This document shows, in pieces, positions 56,966 through 64,000 of a DNA stretch of 64,000 bases; position 1 is the stretch's first letter, and every line of letters starts with the position of its first letter. The notes below the pieces were generated by a model, which saw only the letters and a list, made by a program, of their open reading frames with translations, ran no database searches and was not told the origin of the DNA. Origin of the DNA: Candidatus Eremiobacteria bacterium. GTDB lineage: Bacteria; Vulcanimicrobiota; Vulcanimicrobiia; Vulcanimicrobiales; Vulcanimicrobiaceae. The position numbers were made by a program, and so were the translations under genes. Location of the stretch: positions 416,001 to 480,000 of the forward strand of contig CAVWUU010000001.1 of the NCBI GenBank assembly GCA_963758295.1, written 5' to 3'.

Positions 56966-57196
56966 ATGAAAACTATGACTTGTAGTGATCTTGGCGGAAT
57001 TTGTGACGTAAAGTTGTCCGCTCGCACGTGGGACGAAATGGTAACGACCATGACAGAACACGTGATCGGAAATCATCCTGGCGTCGTTCAGCATATGGAA
57101 AAGATGCACAACGAGGATCCCGGGAGATGGTCTAGAGAGACGAAACCCAAGTGGGACGCCATAATGCCATCGGCGATAGACCGCCGGATCCCTTGA
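56966..57196 (+). CDS. DUF1059-like small protein
   Basis: MKTMTCSDLGG.CD..LSA.TW.EM......H. Confidence 0.7.
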   Translation: MKTMTCSDLGGICDVKLSARTWDEMVTTMTEHVIGNHPGVVQHMEKMHNEDPGRWSRETKPKWDAIMPSAIDRRIP

Positions 57197-57277
57197 GAAC
57201 TGCGTGAGCCGGTTCGCCACGGATGGCGGAGCCGCAGATGAAGAATCGTACCGTCTCGTTTTTAAGCATCTGCATGC

Positions 57278-58630
57278 TCACGGCTTTTTCGGCTGCGTGA
57301 TCTGCGCGTTAGCGTAATGACTCCCGATCGCGCCGTCGCGAATGAAGTCGGCCATCATCTCGAAATACTCCGGCGCAAAGCGCGTCGAGAGACGCTCACC
57401 TTTTGCATTCAGCTCGTATAACGTCATTCCATGTTCCGCGCCGGGATAAACCGCGAGCGTGTATGCCCTTCCGCCGGCAATCAAGGACTTTATGCGCTTT
57501 GCCGTTACAGCGCTTGGAGCGTCTAAATCGTCGGCGCCGAGTACCCAAAGCTGCGGCGTCGTAGACTTCCTTAAAACCGGCATGGGTTGGTACTCGAACG
57601 GAGTTGTGTTCACACCGTACTCCTTGGCCGCCTCAACGATCTGCTTCTCGTTCAGAGGTAAGACGATGAAGAGAAAGTCGCCATGTACATCCTTGTACCA
57701 GCGCGCTGACCTATACTTCCGGCGCAAGCTATCGAACTTATTGTAGCCTTGTCTCCCGCCGGTCTCGACGACGTATTCGCCGGCGCGCGCAAGTTCTAGC
57801 GCCTTAGCGGTATCTGCAGCCGAGCGGTGGTGTAAATACATGTCGAGGGCGACGCTTTCCTGATCTTCTTCTAATACCGTAACGGCAAGTCCAAAGCTCA
57901 CAATCGCGAAATCGACATGAGCATGACTCGCCGCGATCGGTACGACCCACCCGCCTTCACTACCGCCTTGATAGCCGATGCGCCCAAGGCGCGAACCGGT
58001 GAGGCGTTTGGCTTCGTTCAGCGCGGCGACGGCATCCTCGGCAAGAACTTCGAAATTTTGCGTGTAGGTGCCGCCGGATGCGCCGGTTCCGCGCTTGTCG
58101 TACACGAACGCGCCAATACCCTTCGCGGGGAACATTCGTTGTAACGCGTAGAAGTCAAGAGCCGAATCGTGCTCTGAACCATGCACCAAGACAACGACCG
58201 GTATTTTTCCGTGACCTTTCGGTAGAATCAGCCGGCCGGCGAGCTTCGTGCCGTTGCTAAAGAAGGTGGTATTGGTCACATCGAATGCGATGCGCGTACC
58301 GTGCTCCTCTCCAAAAACGATCTTACCTTTGTTGCAATTGGAAAACGAAACGGTCTTGCCGTCCGGGCGACCGGTCCAGCCATAGGTACTCGTCCACGTA
58401 CCGTCCTTCTGCGGATGAAGCTGCCCTGTCTCGCCGGTGAACATACGCCACCGTAGCGTGCCCGCATCAGACGGCGCGATATCGACGGTTTTACCGTCGC
58501 TCAGCCCATAGGAGCCGATGTGACAATCTTTCATCGTATCGGTCGCGGCCCCGGCGGTCAGCGGCGGCGCCACGCAGATCAGGGACGAGATAATCGCGGA
58601 CAGCGCCGCAGCAATCAGTTTGCATTTCAC
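57278..58630 (-). CDS. Secreted alpha/beta hydrolase (S9/S15-like)
   Basis: Signal peptide, LVHGS, YDKRGTG.S.G, GGSEGG, GADD and GAEHG; probable GTG start at 58630. Confidence 0.88.
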   Translation of the reverse strand: MKCKLIAAALSAIISSLICVAPPLTAGAATDTMKDCHIGSYGLSDGKTVDIAPSDAGTLRWRMFTGETGQLHPQKDGTWTSTYGWTGRPDGKTVSFSNCNKGKIVFGEEHGTRIAFDVTNTTFFSNGTKLAGRLILPKGHGKIPVVVLVHGSEHDSALDFYALQRMFPAKGIGAFVYDKRGTGASGGTYTQNFEVLAEDAVAALNEAKRLTGSRLGRIGYQGGSEGGWVVPIAASHAHVDFAIVSFGLAVTVLEEDQESVALDMYLHHRSAADTAKALELARAGEYVVETGGRQGYNKFDSLRRKYRSARWYKDVHGDFLFIVLPLNEKQIVEAAKEYGVNTTPFEYQPMPVLRKSTTPQLWVLGADDLDAPSAVTAKRIKSLIAGGRAYTLAVYPGAEHGMTLYELNAKGERLSTRFAPEYFEMMADFIRDGAIGSHYANAQITQPKKP

Positions 58631-58729
58631 GCTTACCTTACGCCCGTGTTGGCATGTGTGTTTCACTCTCGTCACTCTGGCGACTCGACCGCGTTACTTC
58701 AGCTTTGCGTCGTCAACCATTCTCGCCGC

Positions 58730-58990
58730 TATGGCCGAGACGTTTGAGTTCCAAGCGACGAAGTGAGACGTTCTGCAAGACCGTTGGTAAGGACGACGGT
58801 TGCGCCGTCTTCGTCCGTGCGGAACACGGTTACCCCGAGTGTTCCAGAGTTGCAATCGTAGACGGGGCCGGGTGGCCGAAAACATTGTGGCGGCCGACCG
58901 AGATGATTGCGTATCGCGGGTGCACCGCGGCGATGAACTCCGGAGAAGAGCTGTATGCCGATCCGTGATGGCCAACTTTCAGAACATCGG
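58730..58990 (-). pseudogene. comEC: comEC 3' fragment C1 (metallo-beta-lactamase domain end)
   Basis: DVLKVGHHGSAYSSSPEFIAAVHPRYAIISVGRHNVFGHP...then, after a frameshift, VFRTDEDGA. Confidence 0.85.
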
Positions 58991-59177
58991 GGCTCTGGGT
59001 TGTTAATTAATTTGCGCGCTTGTTAAGGCGCGGCTTTTTGCGGTTTGCGTGCTAAATTCGGGGACTTGCGTGTTTTACTCGCGCAGCGGCTTCATGCGGC
59101 CAGCCAACCTCGAGTGGTATGCGTGTGCAATGGGTCGCAGCCAAGGAGCCCCGCTTTCTCGCGCTGCACCTGGTTGC

Positions 59178-59850
59178 ATGACAGCAAAAGAGGATCGAAA
59201 TCTGCGAGACAGGCTGGTCTTTGCGCGAGTCGGGTGGTGCAGGCTCTACAATGAAACTGCGGGCGACGAGCCGCTGCAAGGCGGCTCCCACAATAACGAC
59301 GAGGTCGGATCTGAGTTCGCCAACTTTTCAGTCGTTAAGGGTCGCGTGTACGGCTACGTGCGGCTTGGCTACGATGGCCAAGTGGTCCGCGTCATGGGTT
59401 CGCCGGACGCTGAAGTGGACGACGTGCCCATTGCGCTTTTCGCGACCGTATACGTTTGGCCGGGCTCGGCGAAGGACGCCATTCTTCTTCCCGTTCGCGA
59501 GCGCCGGTTGACCATTCCGAAGGGTAAGGGTGGAACCGGCCAGGCAAACGTAACGTATTCGCGCAACGCCGTCGGTCGGCTACGTAACGTTCCATGGATC
59601 AGTGAGGTACGTCGGTTCATTCAGTCGTACGACGGACCGTCGTTGGTGGGTCTAAGAAATGTTCAGTCCAACGAAGAGATAGTGGCGGACGAAGCGGAGG
59701 CGTTGCTCCGTGGTCAGAACATCATGCAGAACGCGCAGATGCGCGCAAGCATCGAGGACTACGCTATGCGGAAAGTGCGCGCGGCTCTGCGAAACGACGG
59801 ATACGAGGAAGTAGAAGACGTACACGATTGGCAATCGTTCGACTTCTGGT
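59178..59850 (+). pseudogene. Truncated nuclease-like gene (DUF3883/NO VEIN-like C-terminus cut)
   Basis: LVFARVGW...Y...GGS.N...E..NF and GQ.NV.Y; IEDYAM......GY..VEDV.....FD, after which the ORF runs into antisense comEC sequence. Confidence 0.5.
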
Positions 59851-59975
59851 GTCGCGTTCTATTCTCGCAGTCTGCCGTGCGTCGTTATACGCATAGCCGC
59901 CATAGCGTTGACCGCTATCGCAAACTCCGACACGGGAAAATCGCGCAAAACGACGGGCGCACCGCCGACGTGGTC
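59850..59975 (-). pseudogene. comEC: comEC middle fragment M1
   Basis: DHVGGAPVVLRDFPVSEF(frameshift)DSGQRYGGYAYND, homologous to fragment M2. Confidence 0.75.
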
Positions 59976-60100
59976 GCATAAAATCTTTCAGGCACACGAC
60001 CGCGGGAGCGCATGCGCCGTATGCCACAGAATAAGGCATCATGAAGGCTGCCGACACCTAACGAACGGTCGATCGTACATTACGAGGGAGGATCTTAACC

Positions 60101-61675
60101 ATGCGTCCTGTCCGCACTATTACCGCTCTAGCTTTCATCATTGTTGCTAGTCTGTGCTGTTTAGCCGTGGCAGAAGCGTCGTGCGGGCCGGCAGATCCAA
60201 CCGGGTACTACGAGGGCACCGCCCAGAGTAAGGAGGCCGGAGCGCTGAAAGTCACTATGAACCTGCGGTGCGACGGCCGTCGTTATAACGGCAGCATAGT
60301 TACGCCGGTTGGTACGTTTGCAATCGTCGACGGCAGCTACACGAACGGAACCCTCAGCTTGCAGTTCGGCGGTGGCGCCATCAATGATCGGGGGACACTG
60401 AACCTACAGATTAACGGGGATAGCGCCATAGGGTCTTTCAAACTCGCCGCCGATTCGGGCTCTTTTGCGTTAACGCGATTGGGGGATGCTCACGTGCTAG
60501 CATCGGTGACGCCCGATCTCGATATCACAAGGCAGCAGTGGCATGAGGACCTGCGGTTCCTAATGTCAGAGCTTACGACTAAACACGTCCAACCGTTCGC
60601 GTACACGTCGCGCCAAACGCTGCTGGACGACTCGGCGGCACTCGACCGGCAATTGGGCACGCTGAACTTCGATGAGATTTATATGGGCATGGATCACATA
60701 GCCAATCTTATCGGGGATGGCCATACATACGTGGAATTCCCGCCCGATCTCGCACTTTTTCCGATGCAGCTGCAGCGCTTCAATAACGATTACCGGGTTA
60801 TCGAAGCGACCGGAGAGGGCAAGAATGTACTTGGGATGCGCGTGGTGGCAATAGACGGAGTGCGCATTCAAAAGGCGCATGATGAACTTCTTGCAGCTAT
60901 CACGCCCATCGGTGAGACGAAGATACTTCGCGACGTACGGGCGCAGAATTTTTTGACCATCGGAATGGCGCTGCATGGAATCGGCATCATTTCCGAGCGC
61001 GATCGCGCAACGTACACGATTGAGGATGATTCCGGCCGCGTAAAGCAGGTAACTTTGAACGCGCTCTCGCCCGCACAAGCGGACGCGGCTCAGTGGAAGT
61101 GGGCATGGCAAAAGCGTCCACTGTTTCACCAGCGGCGAGACGATGATTTTTGGTACACGTATCTGCCGCACGCGAAGGCAGTATACCTCAGTTTTAGGGG
61201 CTACGAGAATCTGCCGTCGCTCGCTCCACGGTTCATGGATTTCGTGAAAACGAAGCGGCCCGCCAAAGTGATAGTGGATCTCCGATTGAACAGCGGTGGC
61301 GATTATAAAGCAGGTTTGAAGTATCTAGTCGACCCCATTGCCGCACTTTACAGCATAAACCGGACGGGGCATTTGTTCGTACTCGTGGGGCCGAACACGT
61401 TTTCCGCTGCAATGTCAAACGCGGCGCAGTTCCGGACCAAAACGCACGCGCTTTTAGTTGGCCAAACCATTGGCGAGCGGCCAAACAGCAACCAAGAAGC
61501 AAATGAGGAGCGGCTGCCCAATTCGCATCTGCTGCTTCGGTACTCGACGCGGCACTACGCATTCTTGCCGGGGAAGATCAATGAGATCGTTCCCGACAAG
61601 CAAATCATTCCCGCGTGGCCGCCGTTCCGATCTGGACGTGATCCGGTTTTGGAGTGGGCGTTAGCAGCGTACTAA
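60101..61675 (+). CDS. Secreted S41-like peptidase
   Basis: GGAGG RBS, signal peptide, W.EDL, DGHT, VDLRLNSGG, TFSAA, GERPN, PD and DPVL. Confidence 0.8.
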   Translation: MRPVRTITALAFIIVASLCCLAVAEASCGPADPTGYYEGTAQSKEAGALKVTMNLRCDGRRYNGSIVTPVGTFAIVDGSYTNGTLSLQFGGGAINDRGTLNLQINGDSAIGSFKLAADSGSFALTRLGDAHVLASVTPDLDITRQQWHEDLRFLMSELTTKHVQPFAYTSRQTLLDDSAALDRQLGTLNFDEIYMGMDHIANLIGDGHTYVEFPPDLALFPMQLQRFNNDYRVIEATGEGKNVLGMRVVAIDGVRIQKAHDELLAAITPIGETKILRDVRAQNFLTIGMALHGIGIISERDRATYTIEDDSGRVKQVTLNALSPAQADAAQWKWAWQKRPLFHQRRDDDFWYTYLPHAKAVYLSFRGYENLPSLAPRFMDFVKTKRPAKVIVDLRLNSGGDYKAGLKYLVDPIAALYSINRTGHLFVLVGPNTFSAAMSNAAQFRTKTHALLVGQTIGERPNSNQEANEERLPNSHLLLRYSTRHYAFLPGKINEIVPDKQIIPAWPPFRSGRDPVLEWALAAY

Positions 61676-61897
61676 CCTCGCACGACGTTCCGTCGCTTAT
61701 GATGGATATAGCGCCGTTTTCGTCGCTGCGGAAGACTCACACGCCGAAATGTTCGATTTCAAGCGTCGAGGACGCCGGATAGCCAAACGTGTTGTGGCGG
61801 CCTACTGAGATGATCCCGTATCTTGGATGAACCGCTGAGACGAATTGGGGCGACGAACTGTATGCTGAACCGTGATGGCCGATTTTGAGAACGTCGG
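61670..61897 (-). pseudogene. comEC: comEC 3' fragment C2
   Basis: DVLKIGHHGSAYSSSPQFVSAVHPRYGIISVGRHNTFGYP...GV*VFRSDENGAI (internal stop). Confidence 0.85.
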
Positions 61898-61989
61898 AGA
61901 CCTGCGTGGCTTATTGGACGACTTGCGTGCTAAATTCGCCGTTGAATTCTCCGTTTGACAAAACCGGGTCGACCTTGATCACCCACAGT

Positions 61990-62345
61990 AGAACATCGGC
62001 ATGCAGATCGATGCCTTCGTCCAAAAAGCGACGGTCGGCCGCGACGCCGGCATCGCCGGTGAAAAGCATCCGAAAGTGTTTGTATTCAAGGACGAATGCA
62101 ATCGAGTTATCGTTGATCGCGTTTCTTCCGTCGATGAACGGAAGCGACGGTCCGATGAACGTTAGCATCAGGCCGTCATCGGTCCGCCAGACGTCGCCCG
62201 CTCGGGGTTGAACGACGGGCACATAATTTGTTTCGGCGGTTTCGAGGCAGTCGTGGTATCCATGTCCGCCGTAGACTTGTCCGCTATCGGCAATTTCAGC
62301 TACGCGTAATCGCCGCAGCACCGGCGCGCAGCCACCGACGTGATC
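61990..62345 (-). pseudogene. comEC: comEC middle fragment M2
   Basis: DHVGGCAPVLR...DSGQ...NDNSI...FRMLFTGDAG...DLHADVL; starts abruptly inside the HxHxDH motif. Confidence 0.85.
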
Positions 62346-62369
62346 TCATAAAATCTTCCACTCACACGC

Positions 62370-62410
62370 TTGACAGCCGAGAAACCCTGTGTATACTGTG
62401 CATATAGACA
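62370..62410 (+). promoter_or_regulatory. Sigma70 promoter with YtrA-type operator
   Basis: TTGACA (62370)-16 nt-TATACT (62392); inverted repeat TGTGTATA-N7-TATAGACA (62388-62410). Confidence 0.7.
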
Positions 62411-62800
62411 TGCACAGTGGTTTCGTCATCTCCCGGTCGGATGGCCGGCCGATGTACCTCCAAATCATTGAGCAGATCAAGGAGCGGATCGCGGTCGGCG
62501 ACTGGCCTCGAGGGGCGGAGATTCCTTCGATTCGTCAGCTAGCGGCGTCGCTTCGCGTGAGCGTCATCACGATAAAGCGCGTCTACGAAGAGCTCGAGCG
62601 CGAGGGCGTGATCGTCACGCAACAAGGCAAACCATCGACCGTGTCCGACGACGCCAACGTCGGGCGCGTCGAACGACAACGATTTGGTCCAGCATATCGA
62701 GCAAGTCGCCCGGCTTGGAACGTTGCTTGGATTTTCCCCAAACGAGTTGGGCGCGCGAATGCGCGACGCCGCTGTACGATTGACGGAGGAAGCCCGATGA
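62410..62800 (+). CDS. GntR (YtrA subfamily) regulator, frameshifted near 62670
   Basis: PMYLQI.EQIK..IA.G, PSIRQLA..L.VS..T.KR.YEELEREG; alternative-frame tail ends at TGA 62798-62800. Confidence 0.85.
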
Positions 62801-63696
62801 ACGACGAGTTAGCGGTTTGTTTTGAAGGCGTCGGAAAGAAGTATCCGCACTTCACACTCGACCATATCGATCTCGAACTTCCGACCGGCCACATCATGGG
62901 GTTCATCGGTGCTAATGGTGCCGGCAAGTCCACGACATTCGAATTCTCATGGGCCTCGTTCGCCAGGATCGCGGCTACGGTTCGCGTTCTTGGGCATCCG
63001 ATGCCCGCGGAGCTCGTAGCGGCAAAACGTGATATTGGCTTCGTTTCCGAGGACATGCGGCTTTACAAGGGCGCGACAATCCAATGGCACATGGACTTCG
63101 TGCGATCGATCTTTCCGAACTGGGATGCGTCCTATGCACACGCTCTACTTAAGCGGTTTGACATCACGCCGCAACAAATGGTGAAGGGTCTTTCGCACGG
63201 CCAGCGCGTAAAGGCTGCGCTTCTCCTTGCGCTTGCGCGGCGGCCCAAGCTGCTTGTGCTTGACGAGCCTACCACGGGGCTCGATCCGGTGGCCCGCCAA
63301 GAAGTATTAGGCGCGCTGATTGAGGCACTCGTGGACGAAGAACGAACGGTGCTCTTCTCGTCCCAGAATACGATCGACGTCGATCAGATTTCCGATCGCA
63401 TCACGTTCATCGATCGAGGACGCATCGTGGACTCGGGCGACAAAGAAACGTTCCTCGATCGCTGGCGACGCATCCGCGTCGCAGTTCCCGACGGTGCGAA
63501 GATTCCATCGCTTCCCGGAGTCGTCGATGTGACCACCAGTGGACGCATAACGGTGTTGACGACTAACCGCTTTGATCCAGACGTATCGGCTGCCTTCGAG
63601 AACACGGGCATCGTGGTGCATGCGATCGACACGATGACGCTTGAAGAAATTTTTCTTTCCGAAGTAAACGGCCGCCGAGAGCGGGAGGCAGCATGA
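62797..63696 (+). CDS. ABC transporter ATP-binding protein
   Basis: GGAGG RBS, GANGAGKST, LSHGQ, LLVLDEPT.GLDP; short out-of-frame patch at ~62935-62977. Confidence 0.9.
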   Translation: MNDELAVCFEGVGKKYPHFTLDHIDLELPTGHIMGFIGANGAGKSTTFEFSWASFARIAATVRVLGHPMPAELVAAKRDIGFVSEDMRLYKGATIQWHMDFVRSIFPNWDASYAHALLKRFDITPQQMVKGLSHGQRVKAALLLALARRPKLLVLDEPTTGLDPVARQEVLGALIEALVDEERTVLFSSQNTIDVDQISDRITFIDRGRIVDSGDKETFLDRWRRIRVAVPDGAKIPSLPGVVDVTTSGRITVLTTNRFDPDVSAAFENTGIVVHAIDTMTLEEIFLSEVNGRREREAA

Positions 63697-64000
63697 GTTT
63701 CTCAATGGTTCAAAGGCTGGTCGCTAAGGATTGGTATCTGTTGCGCCTGCCTCTCGTCGGCTACGTTAGTGGAGGCGTCCTAGCGCGTGCTCATGTTGGC
63801 GACGGGCGGCGAAGCGATGTTCAACGTTGGGACCATTCTGATCATCACGCTCCTCATCGCTTTGGGAATGCATGTGGTGATGGCGACGGTTGTCGGTGAG
63901 CGCATGGAACATACGCTGCCGTTCGTTATGAGTCTCCCGGTTTCAATTGCGCAGTACACCCTGGCGAAGATCGTCGCGAATGGTTCACTGTTTCTGAGCG
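63693..64000 (+). CDS. ABC-2 type permease (partial, frameshift ~63785, runs off the window)
   Basis: RLV.KDW; second frame gives TM segments and ER...TLPFVMSLPVS. Confidence 0.75.

Follow-up and report, generated by a model that had tools for sequence, protein, structure and literature searches.

The window analysed here is a 64,000-nt stretch of a Candidatus Eremiobacteria genome (G000:C1:416001-480000; positions above 64000 are window-extended coordinates on the same contig), and its right-hand part carries displaced pieces of the competence gene comEC interspersed with unrelated genes. The minus strand carries the 3′ third of comEC twice in truncated form, as F1 at 62345-61650 and F2 at 59977-58717, and blastn and alignment divide each into two pieces. 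M1 (62345-61994, minus strand) forms the 5′ part of F1 and is open for 117 codons from DHVGG to HADVL, while C1 (61897-61650, minus strand) continues from DVLKIGHHGS to the gene end with one in-frame TGA. M2 (59977-59882, minus strand) comprises the first ~32 codons of F2 and likewise begins at DHVGG, the remaining middle part being deleted, and C2 (58990-58717, minus strand) extends from DVLKVGHHGS to the stop with one frameshift. Along the minus strand the order is M1, a 96-nt remnant, C1, an S41-type peptidase gene, M2, a ~0.9-kb decayed nuclease gene and C2, which is the last gene end of the array and probably the oldest. The original prediction, made from the letters of the window, had described four diverged minus-strand comEC pieces, and all four are present at 72-78% identity to the full comEC outside the window (blastn). 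Its order contained the same pieces but interchanged the two copies and left out the nuclease gene that separates M2 from C2, and M2 amounts to only those ~32 codons.

M1 and M2 both open exactly at the Asp-His codons between HPHG and DHVGG (alignment), behind a common non-comEC sequence. As had been claimed, the junction stretches 59965-59998 and 62335-62368 are identical at 29/34 positions. Alignment and a position weight matrix (PWM) delimit a 26-nt half-site that abuts the Asp codon, with copy 1 at 62346-62371 in front of F1 and copy 2 at 59976-60001 in front of F2, both on the minus strand and both of attR type (att, attachment site). The two copies score 31-34 with this PWM, the next-best position elsewhere in the genome scores 14, and G000 holds no further copy. 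A full-length comEC, restored to the right of the window as anticipated, begins 322 nt past the window edge (66570-64322, minus strand), and open reading frames (ORFs) beyond the window delimit a head cassette (64928-62346, minus strand) that supplies its 3′ end. This full gene matches PF03772, and its G005 orthologue matches PF03772 and PF00753. The fragments align to residues 578-776 of the 779-aa ComEC, whose numbering is used throughout, at 57-86% identity, and alone give no Pfam match at E<=0.01. On these alignments the fragments are pieces of comEC, a gene encoding a Competence domain and a C-terminal metallo-beta-lactamase domain with the motif HxHxDH.

Frameshifts are abundant in the G000 assembly (3.03 Mb, 82% complete), with leuS and the full comEC (64322-71421, C1:480322-487421) each spread over at least four frames, and the assembly looks like an uncorrected long-read metagenome-assembled genome (MAG). 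Single stops and frameshifts in the window are therefore unreliable, and neither the stop in C1 nor the frameshift in C2 is evidence of decay.

The DHVGG breakpoint recurs among relatives. A protein search with M1 in 41 genomes (here and below, G denotes genomes and L denotes loci or contigs) returned multiple comEC ends in G000, G003, G005, G010, G012, G019 and G021. In G005, which belongs to the same genus and has the same flanking genes, a whole comEC is followed by four fragments plus smaller pieces over 31 kb; elsewhere, arrays contain three fragments (G155), two (G184, G012 and G133) or one (G151, G010 and G083), and an array holds up to five gene ends. With few exceptions the displaced fragments begin at ComEC residue 577/578, the Asp of the Asp-His pair (in G000, G010 and G151, four times in G005 and twice each in G012, G133, G155 and G184), and high-scoring segment pairs in the local loci start at this site in 67 cases, span it in 99 and end there in two, with overlapping loci counted repeatedly. 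The same non-comEC motif precedes each fragment at 0.6-1.5 bits per column over 25-26 nt, falling to ~0.1 bit at -60 to -29, and on the comEC side conservation dips at every third base in a coding-like manner. A degenerate pattern combining the motif with Asp-His matched 19 sites in 13/201 family genomes and 6/78 genera, with 0 matches for the reversed control. The junction thus recurs, exact to the nucleotide and across genera, far more often than chance allows, and the integration hotspot in comEC that had been suggested at DHVGG is borne out. The tallies of the M1 search, the 201-genome pattern scan and a palindrome BLAST described below include genomes flagged as unpublished (G004, G049, G050 and G062), and no claim depends on these.

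In a one-genome-per-species set of 185,579 species, 25 loci matched the pattern. Those for which a comEC fragment or another site provides support come from records titled Eremiobacterota, Vulcanimicrobiota and Baltobacteraceae, plus two titled otherwise (Acidiferrales and Verrucomicrobiia); single matches in unrelated taxa were uninspected and are taken for chance. Pattern and junction-derived PWM together yield at least 30 junctions in ~18 genomes and four metagenome contigs, and the array architecture is present in at least 15 independent assemblies, one of them a single-contig chromosome. Directly behind the G005 comEC stop lies a unit with no cargo, made up of a ~25-nt spacer, a degenerate motif and a decayed fragment. 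A role of the motif as a promoter was rejected, given that the adjoining cargo occurs in both orientations. We also observed a solo motif with only ~14 decayed comEC bases, in opposite orientation and 44 kb from the G155 array (L151, G155:C1:1304677), possibly the trace of an inversion or the remains of a second site.

The divergence of the fragments is of a coding type. Over 118 ungapped codons, fragments differ from resident genes and from each other at 20-30% of bases, with synonymous divergence (dS) of 1.0-2.0 and nonsynonymous to synonymous ratios (dN/dS) of 0.06-0.11, equal to the values between full-length working orthologues; for M1 against working comEC genes the ratio is 0.07-0.08. 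Such ratios at this level of divergence indicate that the fragments diverged as working gene ends, and several remain open for 198-207 codons or more. Saturation leaves most of a tree of the M region without resolution, and we use its two starred clades. In each, a displaced fragment joins the active comEC end of a different genome, that of L057 for G184_b (support 100/99) and that of G083 for G184_a (99/98). Fragments from the same genome never cluster together, and for F1, F2 and the resident end the nearest relatives reach no more than ~80% identity.

Transfer between diverged genomes is evident from G184 and L057, which share 4007 bp at 93.5% identity beginning at the Asp-His codons. The shared block takes in a gene end with its cargo (MarR, EVE and SDR genes among them), then the motif and the greater part of the following fragment. 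The comEC 5′ parts of the two are 73.4% identical, and 5′ parts together with upstream genes 73-76%, so that a block at 93.5% within such surroundings points to one cassette having moved between well-separated lineages, and it provides the active end in one of the two and a second-position spare in the other. Together with the arrays of relatives, this cassette supports the original prediction of replacement 3′ ends, displaced old ends and an array that separates cargo genes.

Two loci outside the window add further types of site. In the metagenome contigs L093/L094, a comEC 5′ fragment ending in SHPHGD is joined after bases 1-2 of the Asp codon to the inverted motif, and a whole comEC lies 3 kb past this junction, which is a mirror image of the window junctions, with a replacement 5′ end and of attL type. 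In G133 (L042:6850-6960), the motif, 2 nt and the inverted motif (26+2+26 nt) form a palindromic 54-nt site, the second half of which scores 8.7 bits, a score with a background frequency of 1 in 100,000 positions. The register is consistent across attR- and attL-type junctions, both with a 2-nt centre, and the full 26+2+26 site was observed once (n=1). When the intact gene is included, attR-, attL-, attP- and attB-type sites share one register around one two-base centre, and they would make up the full att set of one site-specific system. The attP of a large serine recombinase is an imperfect palindrome of ~50 bp around a 2-bp crossover and is unlike its attB; by analogy, the 26+2+26 geometry resembles such an attP. 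The attL of the cassettes is seamless inside the restored gene, and a PWM search inside the arrays found no inverted motif partner. By eye, the G133 palindrome adjoins a stretch that resembles the acceptor stem and T arm at the 3′ end of a tRNA, although ARAGORN predicts no tRNA gene there; a second setting, linked to tRNA, may exist for this element family.

Overall, we consider it likely that small mobile cassettes are docked in comEC here as a tandem stack, which a site-specific recombinase would move in trans. The docking point is the first two bases of the Asp codon in the metallo-beta-lactamase motif HxHxDH. A cassette consists of a ~600-nt replacement comEC 3′ end starting at Asp-His, 0-12 kb of ordinary cargo and the conserved 26-nt end motif. 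Integration would fuse the gene end of the cassette in frame to the resident 5′ part, leaving comEC whole, and would displace the previous gene end downstream, where it would lie behind the motif at an attR-type junction. Repeated rounds would then give comEC, cargo, motif and end, cargo, motif and end. The stack in the window comprises a head cassette (GntR/ABC transporter), a second cassette (F1 and the S41 peptidase) and F2, probably the oldest end. We infer that the recombinase would be a dimeric, site-specific enzyme acting in trans on cassettes that would pass through a circular form. A bolder version, possible but offered tentatively, is an integron-like gene-capture platform of a new type, with its attachment site in the comEC catalytic motif and an enzyme never linked to the arrays (a host Xer-type or an undescribed recombinase); each cassette would carry a spare, selected copy of the last 200 codons of the gene and a 26-nt half-site, and old ends would be retained for reuse.

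Several results weigh against such cassettes and their recombinase. An integrase had been predicted to the right of the window, but none follows the restored comEC, where the next genes encode an epimerase, an FAD monooxygenase and leuS. Among 48 ORFs of G005, Pfam gave no match to an integrase, a resolvase or a transposase, and it gave none to a recombinase family in 77 ORFs of G184, G151, G083, G155 and G133, in 20 further ORFs of G133 and L094, or in 52 ORFs of L057, L054, L043, L068 and L072; in sum, ~190 ORFs in or beside the arrays of ~15 genomes or contigs lack any recombinase, transposase or transfer domain. This absence also fits cassettes that carry no recombinase. A large serine recombinase and a Xer protein, one of each, had no tblastn match across 143 loci (1.5 Mb), and viral contigs gave 0 matches to the junction pattern. 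G184, a single-contig chromosome that is 93% complete, has one XerC/D-like tyrosine recombinase (so called by NCBIfam on the G000 orthologue), rve-type transposases far from the array and no Resolvase, Recombinase, Y1_Tnp or IS110 domain. Of the families expected for a large serine recombinase, PF00239 and PF07508 are absent from G000, G184 and G155, and G151 has one large serine recombinase with no motif nearby. No element akin to the cassettes and bearing an integrase of matching specificity was found in the 143 loci, the viral contigs or the array contigs of five genomes, a search that did not cover unbinned plasmids and phages; MAGs may lack these, and a recombinase may reside on such an element. 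No circular form was seen, with two public soil runs containing only 5% of the words, as contigs that leave the junctions uncovered, and no empty and filled pair of near-identical strains was found. A comparison of 5′ and 3′ identity among full genes could not place the crossover, with all pairs too diverged at 63-81% identity. Furthermore, the mirror junction comes from one organism and the palindromic site from one genome, and an element site made of a motif half and a comEC half would be attR-like, not a canonical attB partner for large serine recombinases. Finally, a displaced fragment in G019 (L028:4046-4420) begins ~6 codons before Asp-His and has no motif; it represents either a separate event at comEC or another lineage of element.

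The lack of a recombinase near the arrays would also be expected if a single ancient, illegitimate junction between the motif and Asp-His had since given rise to all present cassettes as cargo was replaced, units were duplicated and comEC repeats underwent homologous exchange (through transformation, for instance), with no dedicated recombinase, as proposed for Rhs/CdiA orphan arrays. The conserved flanking genes could act as homology arms, 600-nt repeats are good RecA substrates, and the block common to G184 and L057 stops within the following comEC fragment, as a homologous crossover predicts. We regard this account as unlikely, however, given that the 26-nt motif stops sharply at -26 and is far more conserved than adjoining synonymous sites, which are saturated (dS of 1-2), and that the inverted motif across the same two central bases in L094 and the complete palindrome in G133 are unexpected for a passive scar. 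A host XerC/D-like recombinase could alternatively move the cassettes, as in integrative mobile elements exploiting Xer (IMEX) or the pdif modules of Acinetobacter plasmids. A half-site of 26 nt around a 2-nt centre departs from the 11-6-11 arrangement of Xer sites, and elements of this kind have a site like the host dif at a terminus-linked locus. The 82%-complete genome contains no second motif copy that could be dif (next-best PWM score of 14 versus 33), the locus is not at a GC-skew switch, and a 66-nt palindrome query found no conserved counterpart in 201 genomes by BLAST. On these three results we rejected a dif-based origin and judge Xer-driven movement to be quite improbable, even though a conserved XerC/D-like gene of 309-314 aa occurs in 6/6 array-bearing genomes tested and would account for recombinase-free cassettes.

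Promoter-less fragments that share a 5′ boundary, remain open and are under purifying selection also recall a silent store of comEC ends for gene conversion, like pilE/pilS, with the cargo incidental. Kilobases of unrelated, horizontally moving cargo between the fragments would be hard to reconcile with such a store, variation in the translations is even along the fragment and not patchy, and we know of no need for variation in ComEC, an inner-membrane channel and nuclease; we give this idea very little credence. An assembly artefact, with repeats collapsed or joined into chimeras in a long-read MAG prone to errors, might be suspected from the many indel errors of the assembly and from junctions with no raw-read cover. 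That suspicion is effectively refuted by copies 22-28% diverged, too different for assembler confusion, and by the same architecture in the independent assemblies, including the single-contig chromosome.

The second breakpoint appears to have another origin. Homology to comEC resumes at DVLK in both C1 and C2 (alignment), and the 3′ pieces do start there near a common 16-mer, as first noted; this 16-mer occurs exactly twice in the 3.03-Mb assembly, at 59045-59060, upstream of the nuclease gene start, and at 61923-61938. At the DVLK site of F2 lies a decayed gene of the DUF3883/NOV_C (PD-(D/E)xK-like) nuclease type in antisense orientation (58991-59881, ORF 59175-59981, plus strand; homologues and alignment). 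A ~96-nt remnant of the same insertion, containing the 16-mer, lies inside F1 (61896-61993; alignment), where it is bracketed by an imperfect 8-nt direct repeat of the target at 61888-61895 and 61990-61997 (7/8), and the ends of the insert beside C1 and C2 are alike, both with the 16-mer. Among 5.8 billion proteins, the nuclease ORF had seven matches. One is the copy in the window itself, and two of the other six carry PF13020; the ORF itself matches no Pfam or NCBIfam family, PF13020 included. Alignment shows that the copy in the window has lost an internal segment and stops short of the conserved, catalytic EVK block, with ~75 C-terminal residues missing, and on this homology it is a decayed relative of DUF3883/NOV_C nucleases.

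The original prediction had invoked two recombinase specificities, for DHVGG and DVLK. In related genomes, the DHVGG junction recurs within the family and the DVLK breakpoint does not: no fragment in relatives starts at DVLK behind a motif, and the nuclease ORF occurs once in the G000 genome and is absent from relatives' arrays. A second replacement-end att site at DVLK was thus rejected, the breakpoint being an insert with an imperfect 8-nt duplication in F1 and no recurrence as a fragment start. We read it as a target-specific insertion of the nuclease gene into already displaced fragments, or as a fragment-to-fragment copy. In the proposed sequence of events, the gene would have inserted later and separately from the cassettes, at the DVLK codons of F1 and F2, and would then have decayed. 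An imperfect 8-nt tandem duplication (7/8) was also noticed exactly at the DVLK codons of fragment a in G005 (L023:11000-11060), and may be an excision footprint of the same element.

The cargo is of ordinary kinds. The head and newest cassette encodes a GntR-type regulator and an ABC ATPase, fused in the assembly (62389-64000, plus strand; Pfam GntR and ABC_tran), and then a membrane permease to ~64365. Between motif copy 1 and the GntR start (62372-62410), a near-consensus sigma-70 promoter-like sequence overlaps an inverted repeat, possibly a GntR operator, by eye only. The second-cassette cargo between F1 and F2 is a 524-aa S41-type peptidase-like gene (60101-61675, plus strand; Pfam Peptidase_S41, 26.7 bits with a cut-off of 24). 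An S9/S33-type serine hydrolase gene closes the array (57278-58675, minus strand; Pfam and blastn). This gene is 89-93% identical in G003, G005 and G155, the last from another genus, in which it sits inside the array (L040:11963-13378), and the comEC genes of these genera are ~72% identical; the hydrolase gene is thus old, transferred cassette cargo and not a true flank. In a low-depth soil contig from run X2, the start of the S9 gene is joined to an uninterrupted comEC end (joints 58665 to 58855 and 58913 to 61996; window positions 58431-58913 and 61996 onward), and the contig looks like a relative without cassettes, as in G003. An Rfam scan of 57000-64000 gave merely two sub-threshold chance matches.

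Eremiobacterota (WPS-2) abound in soils, are almost uncultured and have mobile elements of which practically nothing is known. The comEC locus appears to be a main entry point for accessory genes in one family of this phylum, admitting transporters, peptidases, regulators and redox enzymes. Two features make the design unusual: the competence gene would be rebuilt at each insertion, not knocked out as by many mobile elements, and the cassettes would travel without a recombinase gene. The recombinase, once found, would define a new intragenic attachment system and a natural "landing pad" for genetics in the phylum. Literature searches on comEC integration and on comEC in Eremiobacterota turned up no description of this system.

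Known systems share parts of this architecture. Integron arrays likewise stack recombinase-free cassettes of one to few genes, inserted at the head with the newest first. In contrast, the comEC site has neither an adjacent intI by an attI (the upstream genes being the epimerase, the monooxygenase and leuS) nor the folded attC hairpin that ends each integron cassette, its cargo lies in both orientations and each cassette includes a piece of the target gene. Rhs/CdiA orphan arrays resemble the comEC arrays in having a main gene followed by displaced 3′ fragments, each with accompanying genes, but those fragments are variable toxin tips with immunity genes, and their starts are not fixed by a conserved foreign motif. 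Composite islands of staphylococcal cassette chromosome (SCC) and pseudo-SCC elements at rlmH (orfX) are moved by Ccr large serine recombinases. There, a single site within a gene accumulates units with and without a recombinase, the latter being moved in trans, and a serine-type recombinase would fit the 2-nt centre and ~50-nt palindromic site of the comEC system. In the comEC arrays, however, no ccr-like gene was found, and the duplicated target is a long, diverged and selected coding segment.

A study of ssrA-specific genomic islands in Dehalococcoides describes one conserved gene that docks many tandem islands with strain-specific cargo, and an integration module kept in only 16/31 islands (PMC3146451). 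As portrayed there, those arrays differ in having integration modules beside the site and an RNA gene with a short repeat as the target. The closest known kind is the accretion scheme of streptococcal integrative and conjugative elements (ICEs), integrative and mobilizable elements (IMEs) and cis-mobilizable elements (CIMEs). A review that covers ICESt1/ICESt3 at fda in Streptococcus thermophilus sets out CIMEs and tandem ICE/IME accretion at a gene 3′ end, and a target gene that is likewise kept whole (PMC5704250). We read the comEC array as serial accretion of CIME-like cassettes: its units lack integration and transfer genes among the ~190 ORFs, and they are bounded by att sites, with an exact attR-type junction and one attL-type and one attP-type site elsewhere. 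Unlike the streptococcal elements, the comEC arrays have no integrase-bearing parent or relative among the sequences searched. The comEC replacement end is also ~600 nt long and under selection rather than tens of bases, its site falls within a catalytic motif at mid-domain, units without cargo exist, and the host, Eremiobacterota, is a new phylum for such a scheme.

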